From the sequence record PX393108.1: 64,000 nt of DNA, one strand, 5' to 3'. The notes beneath the pieces were generated by a model. That model ran no database searches, was not told where the DNA came from, and was given only the letters and a program-made list of their open reading frames with translations. Of this stretch, positions 1-53,561 are shown one piece after another. A program made the position numbers and the translations under genes. How positions within the stretch are numbered: position 1 is the first letter of the stretch; every line of letters begins with the position of its first letter. The stretch is from a phage.

Positions 1-1491
1 ATTTTCAATATTATGACGTAAAGTTTTAAAGGTAACTTCTTGTCCACGGTAAAGTGTAGTTCCCGGAGGAAGAACTGATCCTTTGGCGAATGCAGAATCC
101 AGCGTCTCGATGTGTTTAATAGCTCGTTCCATGTATTCTTCACGGGTAGAATCTGGTTTACCCAAGAGGAACGAGTTCATTTCAACATATGAATCTGCAC
201 AATAATCTTCGATTACATCAGACTCAGCCTGAGTCAGTCCTTTTGGAGTTACTTCGGTGCTTGCGTATTCATATGCCTGAGCAGCAGATTCATTAATCAA
301 TTTATAAATGCCATTCATGACAAATTGAATAATAGCTACCTTTTCGTCTGGCGTGGCTTTAGAACCTTTAACTAAATCATTGATAATTTTCTTAATAACA
401 TCAAAGCTATTAGAAATATTAATGTCAGCGAGATCGCTTAAAATTTTATCGGTTTTATAATCAAAGAATTCTTTATTCTTTAAATATTCTTGAGAACCTT
501 GATATGTTATATCGCTCTGCAGCTTGATAGATGGATCACGTAAACGTGCATGGGCCAATGCAATATGATTTCGGAAGCTTTCTAGTTCATAATCATTAGA
601 TTTAAAACGAGAAGCACTTCTCATACCACCGATAGCTCCTTTGCCGAAGTTTGAACCAATCTGAATAACGCCAGAGTTCATTGGTCCTTCTGCTTTATAT
701 ACCGGAACTTTAGATTCAAACTCTTGATATTTTTTAGCGGCGAAGCTATCACCCTGAAGTGAAGCATCGACAGTAGAATATTGAGCTTGTGCTGCTAATC
801 GACGACTAATTTTAGTTTTCTGAATAACAGCTTGATCCGTACGCTTATCATTTTCTAGAGCAATAGAAGCGGCAACAGCAACAGCTTTAGGAACAGCATT
901 ACCTGTTTTAACGTCTACATAAACATCACCAACCTTTGATTCAACTTTTGTGAATAACTCAGTTGAAATAGGAGGTACACCTGGAATGTCTTCTAAATTG
1001 GCATTTTTACGGTAAACCATAATATATGCATACTTTTTATCGTAATCCCAGATTTCCTTTAAAAGAACATATCGACCTGCTCCTTTAGTACGTACTAAAC
1101 GGTCAGCAATAACTTGCATTTGACGAGCTGCACCGTTTGTTTTACTTTTTAGTACGCGGAATAGGCATGCGTCAATTTTATACTGTTTCATTGTTTGAAG
1201 AGCAGTATCAAAAACCGCATTAATGACACCAATTGGATTTCCACCCAAGTTTTTAAGTTTAACGAGCGATAGTTTCTCATTGACACCTATCATTACGATA
1301 TGCATCATTTTATCGCCTGGCTTAACGTTTTTATTTGTATCACCGCCAGAGGTGTATGTACAAAATCTAAATCCAGGAAGCACACTTTCTTCACCGGCTT
1401 GAATAGCAAAAATTTGAGGTATTTTATGCTTAGGATTTAAGTTAACAACCGGGGCCGAAGCGCCGTCAAATAATTCTGTAATAAGTTCCAT
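1..1491 (-). CDS. Alt-like ADP-ribosyltransferase paralogue; C-terminus runs off the window start
   Basis: Open minus-strand frame from ATG 1489-1491 to position 1 (absent from ORF track, no stop in window). N-terminus MELITELFD and long stretches align by eye with the adjacent alt product; DNA 1000-1490 resembles 3100-3590. LYRGQ Arg motif at window edge; SD AAGGA upstream. Confidence 0.7.
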   Translation of the reverse strand, partial: MELITELFDGASAPVVNLNPKHKIPQIFAIQAGEESVLPGFRFCTYTSGGDTNKNVKPGDKMMHIVMIGVNEKLSLVKLKNLGGNPIGVINAVFDTALQTMKQYKIDACLFRVLKSKTNGAARQMQVIADRLVRTKGAGRYVLLKEIWDYDKKYAYIMVYRKNANLEDIPGVPPISTELFTKVESKVGDVYVDVKTGNAVPKAVAVAASIALENDKRTDQAVIQKTKISRRLAAQAQYSTVDASLQGDSFAAKKYQEFESKVPVYKAEGPMNSGVIQIGSNFGKGAIGGMRSASRFKSNDYELESFRNHIALAHARLRDPSIKLQSDITYQGSQEYLKNKEFFDYKTDKILSDLADINISNSFDVIKKIINDLVKGSKATPDEKVAIIQFVMNGIYKLINESAAQAYEYASTEVTPKGLTQAESDVIEDYCADSYVEMNSFLLGKPDSTREEYMERAIKHIETLDSAFAKGSVLPPGTTLYRGQEVTFKTLRHNIEN

Positions 1492-1494
1492 GAT

Positions 1495-3588
1495 TTATCC
1501 TTGAACGAACTTGTAAGGTATGTTTGCAATATCTATGCAAGATGCAATAATTCCAAGAGATGATTCTACTTTTTGTTTAACATTTGATGAAACAAATGAT
1601 GCAAAGTCAACTCTGTCTCCTATTTCAATATCACCTGTCATTGCAACTACTTCACCAGTTTCCATTAGACGGTCACCGTCATAAATTACTGATTCGGTGA
1701 GTTCTTCCGTAGTCATAACTTCAGCTTGAATGAGTTTTGTATTATTAGATGTTGTTCCGTCATTATTAGAAGCATCAGTTATTTTATTAACTTTGACCAT
1801 CAATCCTCGTGGTAGAATAACTTCAGCTTCTGTTGCTATTCCGAGACTTCCTGGATATACAACATTAACTTTATGAGCTCCATCAATTGCCCATCCTATT
1901 TGAACTTTAACGTATTCAGGATTTTCTTTATACGCTCTTATTTCGCTTGGATTAATAGTTATTCCTTCTTCATTTTTATCAACTGTCAATTCATTACGAG
2001 CTTCTGGTTCTAAAAGACCAATACCAGCATGCGTAATTCCAAAACGCCCAAAAATGATAGGAGTTAAAGAAGTAGATACAAAATTTCTGAAATAGAACAC
2101 TTTATTTTTAACTAGCGCTTCGTATATAGGAGCAGTCATACTTTGAGCACGATAAACTGTAATGCCTTCTGGTATACGGTCACCGTTTTCAAAAGCTGAA
2201 TCTAAGTTATTTATAGCAGATTCAATTTCTTTTTCACTCATTACATCATATCGTTCTGGATTGTAGCGTCCTAAAAGAAGATTATTGATGTCAGTATATC
2301 CTGAACCACAATACTCTCTAATGCCGCGCTTTTGTGATGGAGTATATTTAGAACCATCACGGGCAATAGTAATATCAATCATTGGACCTGCACCAATTCC
2401 AGAAAAGCTATAAATCATTCTTTTGAGGAATTTAGTTTTTGCTGCGTTCCAGGAATTTTTAGTCATTTCTTCCCAGACTTCATCTGGCTGTCCTTTACGT
2501 GTTTTATTATGTTTATCAAGCCATTTATCTTTGTATTCTTCAAAGAATTTATTAACAGCTGCTGCGTATTTCTCTAAACATTTTATTGAAGTAGTTGGTT
2601 CATTTTTAATCGCATTAAGAATTACATCTTTAATTTTTTCAGAAACTTCATTAACCTCACTTTTTGAAAAGAATTTATAATCATAGTGAAGTTCATCTGC
2701 GGTTCCTTCGGCAATAATTTTTGCTGCCTTAGTTTTAGAAGCCAATGAATTAATTCCAAGTTTCATTTCTTCTGCTTCGGGAATTAAAGGAGCAGTAGCA
2801 GGTTTATTGAAATTAGCTGCGGTAGATTCATACTTCTGGAATAATTCACTTTCAAATCTAGAAGATTCTAATGATTGACTTTGCGCAATTGCTCTACGGG
2901 AAATTTTAACTTTAACGATTACAGCTTGGTCAGAACGCTTATCATTTTCTTGTGCAATAGATGCTGCAATTGCCTCATTTTTAGTTACTTGAGCTCCAGT
3001 ATCTTTATTGATATAAACATCGCCGACTTTCGATTCAACTTTAGTAAAGAGCTCGGTACTAATTTCCGGAACTCCTGGAATGTCTTCTAGTGATACATTT
3101 TTGCGATGTATAAGAATATATGCATACTTTTTATCGTAATCCCAGAGTTCCTTAAGAAGGACGTATCTGCCACCTGAACGACTACGGATAAGTCTATCAG
3201 CAATAAGTTGAATTTGACGAGCTTGACCAGCAGTTTTAGACTTAAGAATACGGAGCATACAGGCATCAATTTTATACTGACGCATCGTCTGCATCGCAAC
3301 AGTAAAAACTGAATTGATGTAATTAATTGGGCTTGGACCAAGACCTTTTAATTTAGCAATTGAACCTTTAGCAGTTAATGTAAAAGGAACAATATGCATC
3401 ATTTTATCGCCCATCTTTAAATCGCGATTAGTATCACCTCCAGATGTATAGGTACATAAACGAAAGCCTGGTTGTTCAATTGCGTCATCAACATGAACTG
3501 AAAAAATTTGTGGTATTTTCTTCTTTGGATTTAAGTTTGTAATCGGAAGAGTAGTATCTTCGTCAAATAATTCTGTAATGAGTTCCAT
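1495..3588 (-). CDS. alt: Alt, capsid-packaged ADP-ribosyltransferase
   Basis: ~697 aa directly downstream of the gene 30 region as in T4. ART-like R/S/E motifs (VYRAQ, STS, EAEV). Second ATG chosen because SD GAGAGGA abuts the first. TATAAATA late promoter upstream. Confidence 0.85.
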   Translation of the reverse strand: MELITELFDEDTTLPITNLNPKKKIPQIFSVHVDDAIEQPGFRLCTYTSGGDTNRDLKMGDKMMHIVPFTLTAKGSIAKLKGLGPSPINYINSVFTVAMQTMRQYKIDACMLRILKSKTAGQARQIQLIADRLIRSRSGGRYVLLKELWDYDKKYAYILIHRKNVSLEDIPGVPEISTELFTKVESKVGDVYINKDTGAQVTKNEAIAASIAQENDKRSDQAVIVKVKISRRAIAQSQSLESSRFESELFQKYESTAANFNKPATAPLIPEAEEMKLGINSLASKTKAAKIIAEGTADELHYDYKFFSKSEVNEVSEKIKDVILNAIKNEPTTSIKCLEKYAAAVNKFFEEYKDKWLDKHNKTRKGQPDEVWEEMTKNSWNAAKTKFLKRMIYSFSGIGAGPMIDITIARDGSKYTPSQKRGIREYCGSGYTDINNLLLGRYNPERYDVMSEKEIESAINNLDSAFENGDRIPEGITVYRAQSMTAPIYEALVKNKVFYFRNFVSTSLTPIIFGRFGITHAGIGLLEPEARNELTVDKNEEGITINPSEIRAYKENPEYVKVQIGWAIDGAHKVNVVYPGSLGIATEAEVILPRGLMVKVNKITDASNNDGTTSNNTKLIQAEVMTTEELTESVIYDGDRLMETGEVVAMTGDIEIGDRVDFASFVSSNVKQKVESSLGIIASCIDIANIPYKFVQG

Positions 3589-3612
3589 CATATCCTCTCT
3601 AGTGTTTATTCT

Positions 3613-3620
3613 ATTTATAA
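3613..3620 (-). promoter_or_regulatory. T4-type late promoter (TATAAATA) for alt
   Basis: Reverse complement of tatttata sits ~20 nt upstream of the alt start. Confidence 0.6.
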
Positions 3621-3624
3621 AATT

Positions 3625-3642
3625 AAAGGCCCGAAGGCCTTT
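3625..3642 (-). terminator. UUCG-tetraloop hairpin (AAAGGCC-UUCG-GGCCUUU)
   Basis: Perfect 7-bp inverted repeat with a 4-nt loop, followed in transcript orientation by a U-rich tract; lies between the small ORF and the alt promoter. Confidence 0.5.
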
Positions 3643-3829
3643 AATAATCTATTGGTAAGAGAGTACGATATATTTCAAACTTTGGACCTTTTTCATAGGC
3701 ATCAAATGTTTCTGTGAATTTATTATAAGCATATGCATCTATAAATTCAATCATAATTTGTGATACAGAAGTAGAAACATCTCCACCTTCTTTTTGAGCA
3801 ACGACAATTGTTTCTAAGTAAGCTTTCAT
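3641..3829 (-). CDS. hypothetical small protein (62 aa)
   Basis: ORF track; start overlaps the gene 30 stop (ATGA), suggesting translational coupling. Confidence 0.5.
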   Translation of the reverse strand: MKAYLETIVVAQKEGGDVSTSVSQIMIEFIDAYAYNKFTETFDAYEKGPKFEIYRTLLPIDY

Positions 3830-5289
3830 AGACCAGTTACCTCATGAAAATCACCAAATACATCCTCGAATGTATTAGCTTTAGTTTTATCTTCACGTAA
3901 ACGAATCGCAATTGGAAGAAATAATTTTACGTAATCAGTGCGGCCATCAGATTTTAGCCAACCGTTGCATTCGCACTCTAGAATTTTTCCAATATAATAA
4001 TTTTGGTTTTCCATAATGCGAGTACGGTCAAGTTCATGCGATTTTACACCGGCTTTATCTTTTAAGCCTGAACCAGCATTTACTTTAATTTTTCCACATT
4101 CTGATTCAAGAATAAATCCACCCGCTTTAGTAGGGTCTTTACGGTGAGGATAAATTCCTACAATTTTTAAATCAACATCAATTACTTCTTTAAATTTATA
4201 GAGATTTTTTGAACGAGCATTTTCCCACAATCCATCGATATTTTTGAGAATAATACCTTCAAGACCTTGGTCAATATATTTTTTATAAATTACCTTAGCT
4301 TCATCTAGGTTATTTACTACCTGGTTTTCAATTAAAATTACTTTATCATAACCTGATGTCATTTGTTCTAGTTTAGAAAAACGTACATCATATTTCAAAC
4401 GAAATGCAGGAAGACCGTATATTTCTACCAACGGGACATAATCCCAGACCTGAAACTTCATGCATTGAGCTTCTTTTTCAGAAATGGTTCCCTTTAAAGA
4501 TTTATTGGCGATGCCATTAGATGCAGTACGTGATTCAGCTACTTCGGCGAATTCTTTAGCTTTACTAATTTCAGGATAAGCATCAAAAAGAAAATCTAGG
4601 CCTTCTGGTTCCTTTTTAACTTGCTCATGGTATACCAATTCGCCATCAATTAACACACCTTCTGGATGAATCTGGCGGGCTTCAGCAGTCATTTTGATTA
4701 ACTCTTCCTTAAGAAGATCTAATCCTAGATATTCATTACCAGCTCGTGATAAAAGACGAACATCATCTAATTCATCGCCTCGGACTTCAGCAAAACACCG
4801 AGCTCCATCTGCTTTTAACTGCGCAAAGGCTGGAAACTTGATATTCTTACTAATGCCTTTTTCATCATAAGAACTTGCCAGCATTTGAGGTTGTTCAGGA
4901 ATTAAACCTGGCCAAACTTTATTTGCAATAGATACTGAAGCACCGCATTCAAGGTCTCGCATCATAACTCGACGCAAAACTTCAACATCATCCTTTTTAC
5001 CATCGGTGATATATCCAATTAATTCCTCAATTGCCGCATTTCCAGTCAATTTCCGAGTAGCTAACGTGAATTCAATGAAGTCAAGCATATCGGTAATAGT
5101 CAGCATTCCAAAACTCTGGGTAGCAATACCAGGTTTAGGCCATTTCTTGATATAATACTGTAACCCACGAGAATAAGTTAGACGATATACTCGTTTAAGC
5201 AATTCATTATCTTTATTCTTTTCAAGAATTGCTTGCTTCTGCTTAGTTGATCCAATAGATGCTATTTCATTCAGAATTTTAAGAATCAT
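3826..5289 (-). CDS. 30: ATP-dependent DNA ligase gp30
   Basis: 487 aa; MILKILNEIASIGSTKQKQAILEKNK... matches T4 DNA ligase as recalled; adenylation motif KADG (FAQLKADGARC). Confidence 0.97.
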   Translation of the reverse strand: MILKILNEIASIGSTKQKQAILEKNKDNELLKRVYRLTYSRGLQYYIKKWPKPGIATQSFGMLTITDMLDFIEFTLATRKLTGNAAIEELIGYITDGKKDDVEVLRRVMMRDLECGASVSIANKVWPGLIPEQPQMLASSYDEKGISKNIKFPAFAQLKADGARCFAEVRGDELDDVRLLSRAGNEYLGLDLLKEELIKMTAEARQIHPEGVLIDGELVYHEQVKKEPEGLDFLFDAYPEISKAKEFAEVAESRTASNGIANKSLKGTISEKEAQCMKFQVWDYVPLVEIYGLPAFRLKYDVRFSKLEQMTSGYDKVILIENQVVNNLDEAKVIYKKYIDQGLEGIILKNIDGLWENARSKNLYKFKEVIDVDLKIVGIYPHRKDPTKAGGFILESECGKIKVNAGSGLKDKAGVKSHELDRTRIMENQNYYIGKILECECNGWLKSDGRTDYVKLFLPIAIRLREDKTKANTFEDVFGDFHEVTGL

Positions 5290-5555
5290 TGTTCATCCTT
5301 CAGAGTTTGATTTACAGCTCTATTATAAATCAATTCATCATTAAGCTCAGTCAAAGACTTATGATATGTAGTTCTAACTTTATTTCCTTGCATCCAGTGC
5401 TTGATATAAATGAAACCTTGCTCTACGCATTTTTTAAAAATTCGTTCGTCTTTTTGAGCTCGGAATTCTGGATTGCATCTAAAAAATTGATTTACGTGAC
5501 CGTAATCACGCGTAGTATTACCTTCATTTTCATAAATAGTGTGAACGACAAACAT
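5286..5555 (-). CDS. hypothetical protein (30.1 position)
   Basis: ORF track, 89 aa; ATGA overlap with the gene 30 start region; synteny. Confidence 0.6.
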   Translation of the reverse strand: MFVVHTIYENEGNTTRDYGHVNQFFRCNPEFRAQKDERIFKKCVEQGFIYIKHWMQGNKVRTTYHKSLTELNDELIYNRAVNQTLKDEQ

Positions 5556-6403
5556 TAGAATGCTCCTTGGAAAATATTATCACCACAAGTAGGTCTATTA
5601 TACAAATACTCTATTCCACCAGGTTTAATATAGTTCCATGTCTGAAATGGATGTGTCTGATATGGATGATATGGATGATATAGATGATTATAAGGATTAA
5701 CTCCAGGCGTTCTCCAGGTAGTATTCCAAGGAAAAGAATTGTTTTTAACCATCTTCTCAATTACATCTTTTATAGCTTTTTCACTATCAAAACTTTCTTT
5801 ATTTTCCTTTGGTGAAAAAAGCTTATTTTCTACATCATTCCATGTATAAACTCGCTGCGCAGTTTTTGGAATATTGTCACGCTCTCCTCGAGCCATCCAA
5901 TAAACTGGAACATTTAATATTTCACTCGCGTGGTCGCAGTGGTGAGCGAGATCGTCAATATAACAAATTACGTTATATTTCTCTTTTGCCTTTTTGAATA
6001 ACTCTTCTTTTGAAGAATCATGACCACACATCATTACTTCTGAGAAGGCACCAGGAAAAAGAGCATTCAAATTAAATTGACGATTCAGCAGAGCGTCAAT
6101 AGAATCACCCAATGCTGTAACAGCTACAAAATTATAATCTTCTTTTAATTTGTTAATTACACACAGGGCATCTTTATATGGAGACAAGTAACGAATAAAA
6201 TCTGATCGATTGTATTTTTCAATTAGCTTGACGCCAAGTTCTTCATCACAATTAAAGAGTTTACCTGGAGAAATAAATTTCTCATCTTGGATCATTTTTA
6301 AAATATGTTCTAATGGAAGATTATATTTCTGGGCAAAATAAGGAAGGCCTGATTGCCAGCTTAAACATACACCATCAATATCAGTCAAAATAGTTGGCTT
6401 CAT
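5555..6403 (-). CDS. HAD-superfamily hydrolase-like protein with His/Tyr/Pro-rich C-terminal tail (30.2 position)
   Basis: 282 aa; N-terminal LTDIDGV resembles HAD motif I (DxDGV). C-terminal NPYNHLYHPYHPYQTHPFQ encoded by a 9-bp tandem repeat. Confidence 0.6.
   Translation of the reverse strand: MKPTILTDIDGVCLSWQSGLPYFAQKYNLPLEHILKMIQDEKFISPGKLFNCDEELGVKLIEKYNRSDFIRYLSPYKDALCVINKLKEDYNFVAVTALGDSIDALLNRQFNLNALFPGAFSEVMMCGHDSSKEELFKKAKEKYNVICYIDDLAHHCDHASEILNVPVYWMARGERDNIPKTAQRVYTWNDVENKLFSPKENKESFDSEKAIKDVIEKMVKNNSFPWNTTWRTPGVNPYNHLYHPYHPYQTHPFQTWNYIKPGGIEYLYNRPTCGDNIFQGAF
5650..5690 (-). repeat. short tandem repeat (~9-bp unit, ~3-4 copies) inside the 30.2-like ORF
   Basis: gatatggat gatatggat gatatagat seen directly; encodes the HPY repeats. 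Confidence 0.6.
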
Positions 6404-6864
6404 AGAGAGTCTCTTAATAGGTTTAACACATCAATAAATTCAGCTTCGGTTAGTATTGTATCATCTTTTGTTAGACCACTAGCCATGCTGTGCTTCAAAA
6501 CTTTTCCTTTCGAGGCTTGTAATGCATCGCGAAAGCCCTTATTTTGGATCGCTGCTTCAAAATATGCATTTGTGTATAATTCTTTCCAGGCTGGGGAGTA
6601 TCTTGAAAACGGAACTCCAAGCCAGAAGAGGGTCCCACGGTCCTGAGCTCTAGCATAAGACCTTCCAGCTTGTTGGGCGGCAAGCCCGGATAACCCAAAT
6701 ATACGACGTTGTTGTTCAACATTTTTCACCTTACATCCTTGGAGGAATCCTTCGAGACCTCCGAATTGAATACCATCCATGACGAAAGGCCATTGGGCGA
6801 AATTACTTAATGCACATGATGGCCATCTAAAATTGCTTCTTATCTCTAACTCAGACATTTTCAA
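6400..6864 (-). CDS. NADAR/YbiA-like protein (30.3 position)
   Basis: 154 aa; LSNFAQWPFVMDG resembles the FSNF..WP..DG core of YbiA/NADAR proteins as recalled. Not HMM-verified. Confidence 0.5.
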   Translation of the reverse strand: MKMSELEIRSNFRWPSCALSNFAQWPFVMDGIQFGGLEGFLQGCKVKNVEQQRRIFGLSGLAAQQAGRSYARAQDRGTLFWLGVPFSRYSPAWKELYTNAYFEAAIQNKGFRDALQASKGKVLKHSMASGLTKDDTILTEAEFIDVLNLLRDSL

Positions 6865-46446: not shown

Positions 46447-46462
46447 AAGGGCCGAAGCCCTT
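46447..46462 (-). other. UUCG hairpin (AAGGGC-UUCG-GCCCUU) at the rIIB 3' end
   Basis: Second near-identical copy of the 46218 hairpin, immediately 5' of the next SD. Confidence 0.45.
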
Positions 46463-47399
46463 ATTTAAATTGTTCAGTAACGTCTTCAACTACTTCGTAT
46501 TGGCAGGTACGCATTTTAGCATCGTTGTAATCAATCGGAATTGATACTACATCGCGAGGATGTACTTTAACTTTTACAACTCGGCTGGTTGAACTGCCAA
46601 AGTGACGAATATAAGATTTAGAACACACGTGCAGACCGCGAGAACAAGTTTGTGTATCATCGTCATTCACACGAGTACGTGGCATTTTAACTACTTTACC
46701 AGGGCTGTTATCAAAGGTATTTGAGTGACAGTCAAAGTAATTGCTGCGAACTACTTTCCAAGCATAGAAGTAGCCGTCTTCTGTAATTTCAATATCGTTT
46801 GCTACCAAGAAATCAAAGAGTCGAGATACCGCTTTTTGGCTCGGGTTTTCCAACAGATTTTCCAAGAACGGAAAATAAAATTCAAAGTTTTCGCCTTTTT
46901 CCATCGAATCGAGAATACGATCAACTAAACCAGACCGCAATTCAATATTTTGATAGAACAAGCTTCCACCTTCAATTCGAACATCACCGGAAATATATTT
47001 TTCAACAGCGCGCCGAACGTTAATTTTTTGCGCTGCTTCTTCCAATTTATCTGCAACAAGCAGATTAAGAATTTCTTGGAAGTTTGAATGAGTATTAGGA
47101 GTTGCGTTATAAGTTACGCCGTCAACGGTAATTGAAATGAATTTTTTAGATGCATTCCAAATAATGTCAGATTTAGCAACTGGAGCAATAGCTGCATCGC
47201 TCTTAACTGTAACTGTAATGTCACCGCTAATGGTAACTTTGGAACGCTCAGCTTCTTCAGCATTTTTCAAAACACGACGGATTGTGTCAACCGATACACC
47301 TTGCCAATCAGCCAATTCCTGTTGAGTGTAATTACCACTTGAATACAGTTTGACAATTTCAGCTTGTTCGTTTTTGGTCAGGCATTTAATATTGTACAT
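46461..47399 (-). CDS. rIIB: rIIB membrane-associated protein
   Basis: 312 aa; MYNIKCLTKNEQAEIVKLYSSGNYTQQELADWQGVSVDTIRR... matches recalled T4 rIIB. Confidence 0.95.
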   Translation of the reverse strand: MYNIKCLTKNEQAEIVKLYSSGNYTQQELADWQGVSVDTIRRVLKNAEEAERSKVTISGDITVTVKSDAAIAPVAKSDIIWNASKKFISITVDGVTYNATPNTHSNFQEILNLLVADKLEEAAQKINVRRAVEKYISGDVRIEGGSLFYQNIELRSGLVDRILDSMEKGENFEFYFPFLENLLENPSQKAVSRLFDFLVANDIEITEDGYFYAWKVVRSNYFDCHSNTFDNSPGKVVKMPRTRVNDDDTQTCSRGLHVCSKSYIRHFGSSTSRVVKVKVHPRDVVSIPIDYNDAKMRTCQYEVVEDVTEQFK

Positions 47400-47410
47400 A
47401 ATTTTCCTTA

Positions 47411-49588
47411 TTAGGCCGCAAGGGCCTTCATAGTTTTAGCGATTTGGGAAACTTCATCATCACTTAAAGAGTTGCGATAACCGATGAAGTCGGAAACAAT
47501 ACGGAATTTCTTGGTAAACTCAGCAACCATTTTATCACTGTTTTTTGAAGCATTATTTGATAGTACATCAAAAAGATTAGTTACTGTCCAGATGTCATGA
47601 CCGATGGTACCTTTTCCACCGTTGAAATATATGCCCTGCAATGAACTAACCATATTACCAAGGCGAGTATATTCTTCAGAAACTTCATCTACACTGAAGT
47701 ACTTCATCATAAAATCTAGTTCAGGATACTTGATAATTTTATCAATATATCGTTTAGCTGAACTTGAATAACCTACATACTTATCATAATCTACAGCATC
47801 AAAAGCATCTACATATAAATCACGTAGAGTTTCAAAAATACATTGACACTGACCGAGTTCTTTTACCTTTTTCTGCAAAAGCGGACGAATAACATAAAAT
47901 TCATTAATGCCAATAAGATTAGCCATACGAGTCAAAATACTCGTAGATGGATGACAAAGCGATGTAGTACCATCCATAGAGAAAATATCAGAACGATGCA
48001 TGTATGCTACGTAACCAGTAATTTCATCTGCTTCTGACGTAAGTGTAAACAATTCCTCTTTTTCCCAGCGCCCGTCTTTAATTTCAAACTTAAACGCAGT
48101 AGCAGCTTTAGGACGAGGAGCTTTACTTTTAACTGCCTTCGGAATATAACTTTTAACTAAAGCTTCAATTTCTGACAAATAATGAATGTTAACTTCATCA
48201 CTTTCAAACATTGCCATAATATCAGGGAGTAAATCAATCTGTGATTCTACTTCCGGATTAATAAACAGAAGCCGCTCATTGTGATGAATATTCAAAGTGT
48301 TATTAAATTCACTATCATCTAACGCGCGTGCTAATCCACGGACAATATTAACACGATTTTTAGTATTATCAATAACAATATTAATTTTTGTCGTATTAAT
48401 ACCAAACAGACGATAGCTTGATGCAACGGCTGAAGTTTCATGACTTTGCTTAATGCGTTTCAGTCGAGGATCAAGATTTACTTCATACACAACCCCTGCA
48501 TTGCATAACTTACTGTCAGGTTCAAACATGCTCTGCATCTTTTTATATGACAGATTTTTAGTCGTGAATTTGACTGAATTGCTAATCATATAATCTCGAG
48601 CAGAATATCCCATCTTCATCAATTCACGGTATGTATGACGAGGAGATGTAGATTCTTTAAATCGTTTTACATCTTCATTGAATGCCTTCTCACTAAGCTC
48701 TTTAACACGCTCAATAATATTTTTACGAGTACGATCATCCAGCGAAAGAGCCTCACGCGATGGAGCAATATCAAGTGAACCCATCGGAAACTTAATATAA
48801 TTCACTTCATTGCGAATGCTTAACCAGTTACGGTCTCTAATAACACCGTCAATAGGATAAACAATACCGCCATAGATAGCATACAATCCACCACGATCTG
48901 GCCAGTATCTTTCTGGATTTACGCCGTAATAATCATCAAAATCCGGAAAATAATCAATTTCACGGTCAAGACCATTAATGATAGCCAAATCTTTGAATGG
49001 TCGCATGATATAAGAAACTTCATAAGCAAAGTTTCTAAAGTCTTTTTCTTCAACTGGAACTACGATTTCAATGCCAGTTTTATCATCTGGACCCATTTCT
49101 TTTACGAATGTAGGTTTAATCTGTGGACCATCACCATCCATGTAAGCTACATAACCACGAATTTCACCTTTATGATATGAAGTAATACTAAATGTATCAG
49201 TATAACTAAACGGAGATTTAGAACCTAAACCAAATCCACCAATGAAATCATTAGATTCAGCCTTAGATGAACTGAAGTATGAATTATACAACCCAGGAGA
49301 ATTATCATCACCTTGAATATCAAAATCGCTCATACCTGGACCAAAATCTCGACAAACAAATCGCGGATCTAATCGTCCTGGAACTTGAATGATAAATTTT
49401 TCAGGATTTCCATTGAGAGCATGAGCATCAATCATGTTGGTAATCAATTCACGGACTACTGCGCGAATCTTGTTTGTATACAAATCAGATGACAGAATTT
49501 TAAATACTTTAAGAGACGCTGTGATGCTAAATGCTTTTGATTTAGAACCATTACCAAGAATTGTTTCTTTTTCAGTGGTGATAATCAT
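47411..49588 (-). CDS. rIIA: rIIA protein (GHKL-type ATPase fold)
   Basis: 725 aa, same length as T4 rIIA; N-terminal ATPase-like region. Confidence 0.95.
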
Positions 49589-49598
49589 AATTTCCTCA

Positions 49599-49802
49599 TT
49601 AATTCATATTGCGTTTAATAACTTCAGCAACTTCTAGTAGTTCATCTTTAGTTGCGGTGTCGGATTGAATTTTATCTCTAATATCCTTAAAGCGGTTTTT
49701 AAACTCTTCGGCTTCTCCCATATCGAAAAAGCGTTGAATGATTCTATATTCTCGATGAACTGCTTTATCAAAAAGTTCTAAATTTACTTTATATGATTTC
49801 AT
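49599..49802 (-). CDS. hypothetical protein (rIIA.1 position)
   Basis: ORF track, 67 aa; good early promoter upstream. Confidence 0.6.
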
Positions 49803-49827
49803 TTCAATATCCTCATTTGCCCAATTA

Positions 49828-49857
49828 ATTATACCACATCCTTGTGGTAAAGTAAAC
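49828..49857 (-). promoter_or_regulatory. T4 early-type promoter (-35 GTTTAC, -10 TATAAT)
   Basis: Reverse complement of gtaaac 49852-49857 and attata 49828-49833, 18-nt spacer. Confidence 0.55.
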
Positions 49858-51677
49858 TATTGGCTCATCCATTCTTTACGAAGGTCAGCATTATCTCCCA
49901 TGAGCATTTCAAAAAGCTCTTTCCAGTTCTCAGGAAGTTTAACAACATCATATACTGGGTTTTGAATCATCTCACGATATTCAGATTTTTCCAAAGAGCC
50001 AAGTCCCTTAATATAACGGATGCTATGTTTAGGTAGAGCATCTTTAGCACTCTCATATTCAGCGACTGTATAAAACCATTCTTGTTTTTTACCGACCTGA
50101 GCGATGATTACAGGAGTTTTGACAAAGCGAATTCTTCCTTGTTCAAACAGTTCTGGCCAATTACTAAAAAATCCGAGCAGAGAAGGATAAATGCTTCCTA
50201 GACCATCATGGTCAGCATCGGTCATAATAGCAATATTATGATAATTCAAGTTTTCGGCTTTTTCACCAAGAACTAATCCAGTGATTGCGCAAATATCAAA
50301 CAGTTCTTTGTTTTTAAGCATATCAGCATATGACATACCCCAACTGTTGAGAACTTTACCACGTAATGGATAACCACCATGAAGTTCTTTATCACGAACA
50401 TCAATAAGATACCCAATAGCCGAATCACCCTCAGTCAAGAAAAGAGTAGTGTCAGCATCTTTACCACAAAGATTCGCTTTAATATGTTTATGAACCTTAG
50501 CTTTAGAAGCCTTTTTAGCTGCTTTAGTTTCTGCTGCTTTTTCTGCCGCCAATTTACGAGCCAAAGCAGCTTCAATGATTGGCATTAAAATTGCTTCATT
50601 ATTTAAAATAGCACGTGAAATCTTTTTAGCATCAAGCTGAATATGACTACGAATTTCACCAAATGGAGAAGTCAAACGCTCTTTAGTTTGAGAATCAAAT
50701 CGCATGTTTTTCATATCACGGACAAACATAACGATAGTCAAACATTCTTTAACACGTGCTTTAGTTACATCAATTTTGAACTTACGTTTGATTTGTGGAA
50801 TAAGGTCTTCACAAATATCATCCATAACACAGTCAATGTGATGACCACCATTCTTAGTATGAATGTTATTGACGTATGTTAATTGACGAAAACCATCCGG
50901 TGAACGACCAACCGCAATAGAGCAATTTTCCTGTTCTTGAACGATAGCATGCTCATCATATTGGCGTGCATATTTCTTAAAATTACCTTGAACCTTTTTG
51001 CCATTAAAGGTAAATTGAATATCAGGATAAACTACTGCAAGTGTCTGGAGACGATCTAGTGTAATGTCAAGATAAACTTGAGATAGCTCATTAGTTTCAA
51101 ATGACATAAAATCAGGAATGAAAGTAACGCGAGTTCCTTTCCATTTTCCAGGAATAGTTTCCCATGATTTATTTTCCATGCCGTTTGAACAACGAACTAC
51201 AATATTATTTTGACCGTCGCCAGTTTCACCGACAAACATCACAGAAAAAATGTTAGTTAAACTAGAGCCAACACCGTTCATACCGCCAGTGACGCGTTCT
51301 TTGTCATCGCCGAAGTTACCACCTGCTTTTGGAATAGTCCAGGCAGCAACAGGACCAGGAATTTCTTCACCGGTAGGTGTTTTAACCATCGCCTGTGGAA
51401 TACCACGACCGTTATCTTCAACTGTTACTTGATTGTTTTTGATAGTAACATTAATTTTATTCGCGAATTTAAACTTAGTACGAATACCTTCATCTACTGA
51501 GTTATCGATAATTTCATCAATAAGCTTAACAAGACCAGGTACATACTGAACACTTTCCCATTTACCAAACAGAAAGCGCTCATGCATTTCATTAGCAGAA
51601 GAGCCAATATACATGCCGCTACGCTTTTTGATATGTTCAATATCGCTCAGAATTTTAATTTCATTCTTAATCATCAC
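49857..51677 (-). CDS. 39: gp39 topoisomerase II large subunit (GyrB-like), uninterrupted
   Basis: 606 aa single ORF with ATPase N-terminal region and TOPRIM-like C-terminal part (EGDSA ... DxDG). Confidence 0.95.
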   Translation of the reverse strand: MMIKNEIKILSDIEHIKKRSGMYIGSSANEMHERFLFGKWESVQYVPGLVKLIDEIIDNSVDEGIRTKFKFANKINVTIKNNQVTVEDNGRGIPQAMVKTPTGEEIPGPVAAWTIPKAGGNFGDDKERVTGGMNGVGSSLTNIFSVMFVGETGDGQNNIVVRCSNGMENKSWETIPGKWKGTRVTFIPDFMSFETNELSQVYLDITLDRLQTLAVVYPDIQFTFNGKKVQGNFKKYARQYDEHAIVQEQENCSIAVGRSPDGFRQLTYVNNIHTKNGGHHIDCVMDDICEDLIPQIKRKFKIDVTKARVKECLTIVMFVRDMKNMRFDSQTKERLTSPFGEIRSHIQLDAKKISRAILNNEAILMPIIEAALARKLAAEKAAETKAAKKASKAKVHKHIKANLCGKDADTTLFLTEGDSAIGYLIDVRDKELHGGYPLRGKVLNSWGMSYADMLKNKELFDICAITGLVLGEKAENLNYHNIAIMTDADHDGLGSIYPSLLGFFSNWPELFEQGRIRFVKTPVIIAQVGKKQEWFYTVAEYESAKDALPKHSIRYIKGLGSLEKSEYREMIQNPVYDVVKLPENWKELFEMLMGDNADLRKEWMSQ

Positions 51678-51726
51678 TTATCCTCGTTTGGTTTCGGAAA
51701 TATTATACTCCAGTAATCATAAAGCT

Positions 51727-51744
51727 AAAGGCCCGAAGGCCTTT
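51727..51744 (-). other. UUCG hairpin (AAAGGCC-UUCG-GGCCUUU)
   Basis: Same sequence as the hairpin at 3625-3642; lies between the lipoprotein ORF and gene 39. Confidence 0.45.
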
Positions 51745-52016
51745 TATTTAAAGCGGATAGTCGAATCCTTGAAGAATAGACCAGAACATACGGTTCCTTC
51801 TACTTTCTGCCCGGTAGGTCCAATAGCACGAAATCCAGTATGTTGGAAATCATTTTCAGAGCAACCGAACCAATTATATCCAGTGATTTCAATATTAGTA
51901 AAACCACTTGAAGACAAAACTTTGGTTGCATTATCAGCATCAGTACATCCTACTAAAGATACTGCTAATACTAATGCCGCGATAGAACGATTAACATATT
52001 TCATAATTTCACTCAA
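51744..52016 (-). CDS. putative lipoprotein (90 aa)
   Basis: Signal peptide with lipobox LVGC|T. Confidence 0.55.
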   Translation of the reverse strand: MSEIMKYVNRSIAALVLAVSLVGCTDADNATKVLSSSGFTNIEITGYNWFGCSENDFQHTGFRAIGPTGQKVEGTVCSGLFFKDSTIRFK

Positions 52017-52380
52017 ATTTAATGGCTTGAAGGAGACTAATAATTCTCAAGCGACTTCTTTCATCTTTAACTGTAAAAGAAAGAGGGTCACCAGATTTCA
52101 TAGTGATGGTGCATCCAAAATCAAAATCTTCTGTAACTTCTTCGAATAGGTCAAACTCTTCATCATAAATTAGAACATTACTCTGAAAACTGTGAAGAAT
52201 TTTTCCATCATTTCCAGATGCTGTACTAATCATTGTAACATTATGGCCTTTCATATCTTCAACGGTAAATTCGCTTGTAGATATTACGGCATTAATAGAA
52301 CCATTCCTATAAATAGAAGAAAGCAGATATTTCTTTTCTTCACCTTCGCGAACACGATATTTCTTACCAATTTTAAACAT
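52009..52380 (-). CDS. hypothetical protein (123 aa)
   Basis: ORF track frame; ATG at 52380 preferred over the GTG the track treats as start. Confidence 0.55.
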   Translation of the reverse strand: MFKIGKKYRVREGEEKKYLLSSIYRNGSINAVISTSEFTVEDMKGHNVTMISTASGNDGKILHSFQSNVLIYDEEFDLFEEVTEDFDFGCTITMKSGDPLSFTVKDERSRLRIISLLQAIKFE

Positions 52381-52382
52381 AA

Positions 52383-52559
52383 TCACCCTTTAAGTAAGTC
52401 GTAAAATCCACCATTCACATGCTTAGGAGCAGAAGGCCGACGAGTAGACAAACGATGACATTTAGGGCAAACATCATTTTCTCGTTCAGAAATCTTTTTA
52501 ATTTTTTCATATTCATGCCCGCAATCTTCGGATTGGCATTTATAATCATACATTGGCAT
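52383..52559 (-). CDS. FmdB-like zinc-ribbon protein (58 aa), not in track
   Basis: Hand-translated MPMYDYKCQSEDCGHEYEKIKKISERENDVCPKCHRLSTRRPSAPKHVNGGFYDLLKG; two CxxC-type pairs in the pattern of FmdB/regulatory zinc ribbons. Confidence 0.45.
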   Translation of the reverse strand: MPMYDYKCQSEDCGHEYEKIKKISERENDVCPKCHRLSTRRPSAPKHVNGGFYDLLKG

Positions 52560-53194: not shown

Positions 53195-53476
53195 TTAATT
53201 AAACAGTGGAGCGATGCGTTTCAGAAGAGTAGCAGCACCTTTGGCAAATTTTACATCATGAAAAACAGTTTCTTCTTCCGTTACAACACGAACTTTAATG
53301 TTTTCACAATCCCAATTTTTACGAACAATCTTCAAAAGCTGCAGTAAATCTTTACATTCAGCAATATCGATAACACATCCACGAGAATCTTCCATTATCG
53401 CACGATAACCATAAGCCATACCATAATCGTTGAAAGATTGTTCGATGATAATTAAGTTTTCCATTTTATTCTCCAA
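53195..53476 (-). CDS. hypothetical protein (93 aa)
   Basis: ORF track. Confidence 0.5.
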   Translation of the reverse strand: MENKMENLIIIEQSFNDYGMAYGYRAIMEDSRGCVIDIAECKDLLQLLKIVRKNWDCENIKVRVVTEEETVFHDVKFAKGAATLLKRIAPLFN

Positions 53477-53561
53477 GTTGTTTTCTGTATCAGTAGTTGA
53501 TATTGATATAATACCATAATCAACTACTGATGTATATAGTTTTATGAAAAAAATTTAAACT

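Follow-up and report, generated by a model that had tools for sequence, protein, structure and literature searches.

In phage T4, genes 39 and 60 of DNA topoisomerase II are found together with a MobA/50-nt bypass cassette (Huang 1988; Bonocora 2011; bioRxiv 10.1101/2022.08.31.505936). In the 64-kb stretch of phage DNA analysed here (the window), a preliminary description had reported gene 39 as a single contiguous ORF, which raises the question of whether the T4 split is truly absent from this locus and, if so, what the uninterrupted state says about its history. We are highly confident that the window carries an ordinary, uninterrupted Tequatrovirus allele of gene 39, in which the site of the MobA homing-endonuclease element is empty. 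Such an allele is already known and ordinary, as described in earlier work (Bonocora 2011; bioRxiv 2022.08.31.505936; Nat Commun 2024). The features on which this reading is based are listed in Table 1.

Table 1. Gene 39, its sites and motifs, and associated genes in the window (positions are those of the window; residues and codons count from ATG 51674).
Feature	Position	Strand	Evidence
Gene 39 ('60plus39'), unsplit gene for the GyrB/ParE-like large subunit of DNA topoisomerase II	49857..51674	-	ORF, Pfam, PHROGs, T2/T6 identity
GHKL ATPase motifs DEIIDNSVDE (53-62), DNGRGIP (87-93), GGMNGVGSS (130-138)	51261..51518	-	Motif search
TOPRIM motif TEGDSA (414-419), including the conserved glutamate	50418..50435	-	Motif search
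TOPRIM acidic motif DADHDG (486-491)	50202..50219	-	Motif search; aligned with T4 gp60 41-46
Empty MobA homing site, 64 nt from the third base of codon 473 to the end of codon 494	50193..50256	-	blastn and codon-level comparison
Adjoining codons for Gly491 (GGT) and Leu492 (CTA)	50199..50204	-	Codon-level comparison with T4
rIIA.1, 67-aa ORF between gene 39 and rIIA	49599..49802	-	Pfam T4_RIIA1, E 1.4e-33; phrog_1683
rIIA, 725 aa	47411..49588	-	ORF; 96% DNA identity to T4 1..2793, which holds rIIA
rIIB	46461..47399		phrog_609; next after rIIA
Gene 52, GyrA-like topoisomerase partner subunit, 442 aa	41914..43242	-	phrog_551 'DNA topoisomerase II', E 1.1e-220

With regard to the reading frame, the ORF listing of the 64-kb window gives a frame of 606 aa at 49857..51677 (-) with GTG as its first codon. 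Stop codons make up 6.9% of the codons on the same strand of the window, a rate at which 605 open codons would arise by chance with a probability of about 1e-19. The figure of 606 codons in the preliminary description arose because an in-frame GTG (51675-51677) precedes the ATG at 51674, which is the second codon of this ORF. The ATG has a GAGG Shine-Dalgarno sequence 7 nt upstream (context ...AACGAGGATAAGTGATG), and the equivalent ATG is the annotated start of gene 39 in T2, ECO07P1, and T4. The solved chain of T6 gp39 begins with the same residues, MIKNEIK, as the product read from this ATG. The real start is almost certainly ATG 51674, which gives a gene of 605 codons plus a stop. The contiguity claimed earlier therefore stands, the frame being open and gapless against T2, whereas the claimed length does not. 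The base composition is even throughout the gene 39 region, no intrinsic terminator was found around the gene by consensus scan, and promoter-like sites near it are no commoner than in shuffled sequence.

Gene 39 of T2 (AP018813 2447..4264) has the same size, 1818 nt and 605 aa, and aligns with that of the window without a gap across all 1818 nt; the window gene therefore contains neither a frameshift nor an internal stop codon. Nucleotide identity is 95.3%, with almost all differences synonymous, and 603 of the 605 amino acids are identical, the window product differing at F70L and T173D. The spacing of the genes is also the same in T2, where rIIA is followed by an 11-nt step, rIIA.1, a 55-nt step, and gene 39. 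This collinearity and spacing bear out the T2-type arrangement proposed in the preliminary description. The product is closer still to T6 gp39 (PDB 8ylu and five further entries), with 604 of 605 residues identical; the single difference is Q526H, and T6 gp39 shows the same length and the same uninterrupted TOPRIM region. After T6 gp39, the next-best match in the PDB is an artificially fused T4 gp39-gp60 chain.

The position of the T4 insertion was determined at both the protein and the DNA level. In BLASTP, for which the query began at the GTG (all other residue numbers count from ATG 51674), query residues 2-474 (1-473 from the ATG) match T4 gp39 1-473 with 98% identity, and query residues 473-606 match T4 gp60 27-160 with 96% identity. 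From the ATG, residues 477-605 of the gene 39 product correspond to T4 gp60 32-160. In blastn, window positions 47400..50192 align with T4 1..2793 and positions 50257..52006 with T4 3911..5661, so that the DNA breakpoints are 50192/50193 and 50256/50257 in the window versus 2793 and 3911 in T4. At the same place, the window has 64 nt (50193..50256) and T4 has 1117 nt (2794..3910), in agreement with the T4-type split by an inserted segment with bypass to which the locus had been compared. The enzyme and its genomic position are the same in T4, and the DNA flanks are 93-100% identical to the window. The part shared with T4 gene 39 ends at codon 473 (Ala), which places the split point at codon 473/474. 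Codons 474-516 of T4 gp39 form a 43-aa extension encoded by the insert. Because of this, codon 515, near which a stop or frameshift had been expected if the contiguity were an artefact, is not relevant: the frame is intact there, and the codons that matter are 473/474 and 491/492, both of which are clean.

The T4 insert holds the C-terminal extension of gp39 (43 aa), mobA, the N-terminal extension of gp60 (31 aa), homR, and the 50-nt gap. Residues 474-516 of T4 gp39 and residues 1-31 of T4 gp60 have no counterpart in the window product. Residues 32-46 of T4 gp60 (NYANVAIMTDADHDG) repeat window residues 477-491 (NYHNIAIMTDADHDG) in re-coded form. Between the T4T homR and the window, 35 of 48 nt are identical (73%), a value inside the published range of 67-81% (bioRxiv 10.1101/2022.08.31.505936), whereas the flanks are 93-100% identical. 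In T4, the gap lies after Gly46 of gene 60. Take-off and landing take place on matched GGA codons, and a stop codon and a UUCG hairpin follow Gly46; Gly46 (GGA, take-off) and Leu47 are separated by 50 untranslated nucleotides. The bypass point corresponds to codon 491/492 of gene 39, where no such gap with GGA codons is present, codon 491 (GGT) being followed directly by CTA. No stop codon follows the Gly491 codon. The three codons after the gap are TTA GGT TCT in T4 versus CTA GGA AGC in the window, and identity resumes from ATT TAT CCT. The same paper's description of the MobA element includes a '64 nt deleted region', which agrees with window 50193..50256, and the boundaries, the 43-aa extension and the divergent homR are as described there; the residue numbering D490/G491 likewise agrees with that of RB14 in this source (bioRxiv 10.1101/2022.08.31.505936).

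Searches for remnants of the element in the window were negative. The T4 bypass sequence has no match anywhere in the window at up to three mismatches, and tblastn of T4T MobA against the 64-kb window gave a best E of 5.7, which is noise. There is no insert at the site in the window and no HNH endonuclease gene (mobA) between the two topoisomerase halves. No dip in identity to T4T, as expected of a co-conversion tract, is seen in the flanks, which are uniform, with only homR divergent. As no part of the MobA/bypass element is found in gene 39, the gene is expected to be translated conventionally. In T4 and a minority of its relatives, a 1.1-kb MobA element replaces the 64 nt inside the TOPRIM coding region. 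As a result, gp39 is truncated and gains a 43-aa tail, whereas gp60 gains a unique head of 31 aa and a re-coded target copy (homR) of 15 aa. This element also carries the 50-nt gap that ribosomes bypass.

With regard to the protein, the Pfam models HATPase_c (residues 48-150, E 1.9e-9), DNA_gyraseB (the transducer domain, E 1.5e-13), and TOPRIM_C (E 4.2e-7) each match the gene 39 product above cut-off. The match to phrog_543, 'DNA topoisomerase II large subunit', is full-length (E 1.6e-295). The Pfam Toprim model remained below the reporting threshold for this product, and the full-length match to T6 gp39 spans this domain. The N-box, G1 and G2 motifs are all found in the N-terminal GHKL ATPase domain, and the QTK loop, SQTKERL, is at residues 328-334. 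The conserved TOPRIM glutamate (EGDSA) and the DxDxD acidic cluster are on one polypeptide, the DADHDG codons lying directly upstream of the position of the T4 bypass gap. The order GHKL ATPase, transducer, TOPRIM is shared with bacterial GyrB/ParE and with the N-terminal half of eukaryotic Topo II, and the full-length HMMER matches include Topo II alpha and beta (E ~1e-59) and ParE (E ~1e-48). The phage large subunit is smaller than GyrB and has neither the insert nor the tail of the latter (PMC11461880).

From these features, the gene 39 product is the GHKL ATPase/transducer/TOPRIM large subunit of a phage type IIA topoisomerase. The GyrA-like partner is encoded in the same window by gene 52; gp52 is a short GyrA-like subunit without the C-terminal beta-pinwheel (PMC11461880). 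The Topo II of T2 and of T6 consists of gp39 and gp52 (Nat Commun 2024, PMC11461880), and gp39 and gp52 of the window would form a two-subunit enzyme in the same way. The 605-aa large subunit of T6 has been expressed, is active, and has had its structure solved, and ATP-dependent DNA relaxation has been demonstrated for the T6 enzyme (PMC11461880). As the large subunits differ by one residue, the window enzyme would be expected to relax DNA in an ATP-dependent manner as well. The TOPRIM insertion of T4, of about 70 aa, protrudes outside the domain and affects the activity little (PMC11461880).

The uninterrupted state is common among relatives. With a query of 171 nt (50140..50310) spanning both junctions, the uninterrupted junction was matched over its full length in 453 of 495 closely related phage records, and the remaining records match one flank only (e.g. 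RB55 and ESh36). Only 43 records, many of them T4 isolates, were found with the T4 insert as query. In the protein-level search, 2016 of 2210 records showed at least 80% coverage in one place. The sampled matches of this search are in a single piece, from 99.8% down to ~26% identity, and they cover phages that infect Klebsiella, Acinetobacter, Aeromonas, Vibrio, Campylobacter, and Enterococcus; HY03, a T4-type phage, is the sole split case in the close range of the sample. Given the junction counts and the contiguous distant homologues, the unsplit gene is ancestral as well as predominant. The phage of the window belongs to Tequatrovirus, and no record is identical to it, the best match being ~97% over 24 kb.

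A contiguous gene could nevertheless have a more complicated past. The MobA/bypass element may have been present in an ancestor of this phage and then been removed by homologous recombination when a phage with an empty site infected the same cell. Recombination is free among T-even phages, the window is mosaic relative to its neighbours, with blocks of 87% to 96% identity to T4, no database phage exceeds ~97% over 24 kb, and endonucleases have been degraded or lost in several lineages (bioRxiv 10.1101/2022.08.31.505936), all of which would be in keeping with such a loss. On the other hand, no trace of either extension or of homR is left, and there is no local anomaly in the identity of the flanks to T4T. 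Over codons 474-500, the gene differs from T2 by one synonymous base, and the 64-nt segment 50193..50256 is of the parental (T2) type and unmodified. Moreover, most relatives have the empty site, and nothing calls for a loss. We consider a secondary loss improbable; in that event, the contiguous gene 39 would be restored rather than never invaded, as a 'cure' of the homing element. A clean replacement would be traceless in the sequence. The term 'pre-insertion state' in the preliminary description is appropriate for the type of locus and probably so for the lineage, for which a subsequent loss, through recombination with a phage of the empty-site kind, keeps a small probability.

Two further explanations are contradicted by the alignments, and we give them hardly any credence. 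The split T4-type gene could have been rejoined by deletion of the endonuclease, as in the fused ORFs reported for one clade of Campylobacter phages; these keep the tails derived from the insert (bioRxiv 10.1101/2022.08.31.505936), whereas the window product has 605 aa instead of ~676 aa, has neither the 43-aa nor the 31-aa extension of T4, and shows the parental residues E-N-L at 474-476, as does T2. The alignments with T4 and T2 led us to reject this re-fusion. Faulty assembly or sequencing, by which an insert was collapsed or a frameshift or stop codon masked, is a general possibility, the T4 reference itself being erroneous at this locus (element of 1117 versus 1106 nt, 'defective' mobA). 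This explanation, which is just as implausible, was rejected because the gene is gapless over 605 codons against the independently sequenced T2 and against T6, and because 453 independent records show this uninterrupted junction too; in addition, a 605-aa protein is what was expressed, found active and structurally solved for T6 (PMC11461880).

An uninterrupted gene 39 with an empty MobA site is thus retained as the reading of this locus, and no feature of the sequence speaks against it. The contiguous gene is the textbook comparison state for interpreting the T4 39/60 split and the gene 60 bypass as the insertion of a mobile element, and the window phage belongs to the Tequatrovirus majority, in which the MobA site is empty and topoisomerase II has the conventional two subunits. 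MobA is reported to nick the T2 target (Bonocora 2011, as cited in bioRxiv 10.1101/2022.08.31.505936). As the 64-nt segment is nearly identical to this target, MobA homing into this locus is expected in mixed infections: if a T4-type phage infects the same cell, its MobA is predicted to nick the site, and the element could be acquired. This natural allele, one synonymous base from the T2 target of MobA, could also serve as a ready-made homing recipient. For annotation, the name '39' or '60plus39' and the start ATG 51674 are suitable, and no recoding is expected.

The T4 reference and resequenced T4 differ at this locus. The insert of the T4 reference (NC_000866, 2794..3910) has 1117 nt and that of T4T (1501..2606) has 1106 nt, with 98.7% identity; the reference insert is 11 nt longer than that of resequenced T4 strains and of other carriers. 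These 11 extra nucleotides therefore account for the annotation of a 'defective' 37-aa mobA and of a separate gene 60.1. T4T has one intact mobA of 272 aa, which overlaps both extensions. Within the QTK loop, gp39 of the T4 reference reads MRLIRQTKE, versus MRFDSQTKE in the window and in T6.

Downstream of gene 39, the single 67-aa ORF noted earlier before rIIA is indeed the sole ORF there and is rIIA.1; T4 likewise has rIIA.1 between rIIA and gene 60. The 54-nt gap from the gene 39 stop to the rIIA.1 start contains a promoter-like TTTACT-17 nt-(TG)TATAAT, with 10 of 12 positions matching (49828..49856, -). This site is a lead only, because the number of such sites across the whole region scanned is no higher than in shuffled sequence.

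Upstream of gene 39, a GGCC-UUCG-GGCC tetraloop hairpin (51730..51741, -) directly follows the stop codon of 39.1 and was not flagged as a terminator by the consensus scan. After this hairpin, positions 51702..51727 (-) comprise TAGCTTTA, 12 nt, and TATAAT, some 25 nt before the ribosome-binding site of gene 39, and the element resembles a middle promoter with a MotA box. The 39.1 homologue (51744..52016, -) has 86 aa, a probable start at ATG 52004, and a match to phrog_902, of unknown function. It has 86 aa (261 nt) in T2, ECO07P1, and T4T as well, against just 65 aa in the annotation of the T4 reference. The N-terminal sequence of the homologue in the window, MKYVNRSIAALVLAVSLVGC, resembles the signal peptide of a lipoprotein, including the cysteine of a lipobox.

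Between gene 39.1 and a 58-aa ORF (52383..52559), which is an apparent 39.2 homologue, lies an ORF of 123-125 aa (52009..52386, -) with a probable start at ATG 52380. It has no counterpart at this place in T4, window 52007..52377 being unaligned between T4 5661 and 5657. Its PHROGs matches are one to phrog_622, of unknown function (E 3.6e-28), and a weak one to a goF family (phrog_13003, E 1.9e-7). The same slot holds a 372-nt gene in ECO07P1 and a 318-nt gene in T2, and its position looks like a variable slot of the early region. Further upstream, 43 nt at 53489..53531 match T4 6582..6624 in inverted orientation with 81% identity, besides the direct alignment, which suggests a short inverted repeat within 53457..53531, an intergenic stretch that lies upstream of the genes on the motB side.
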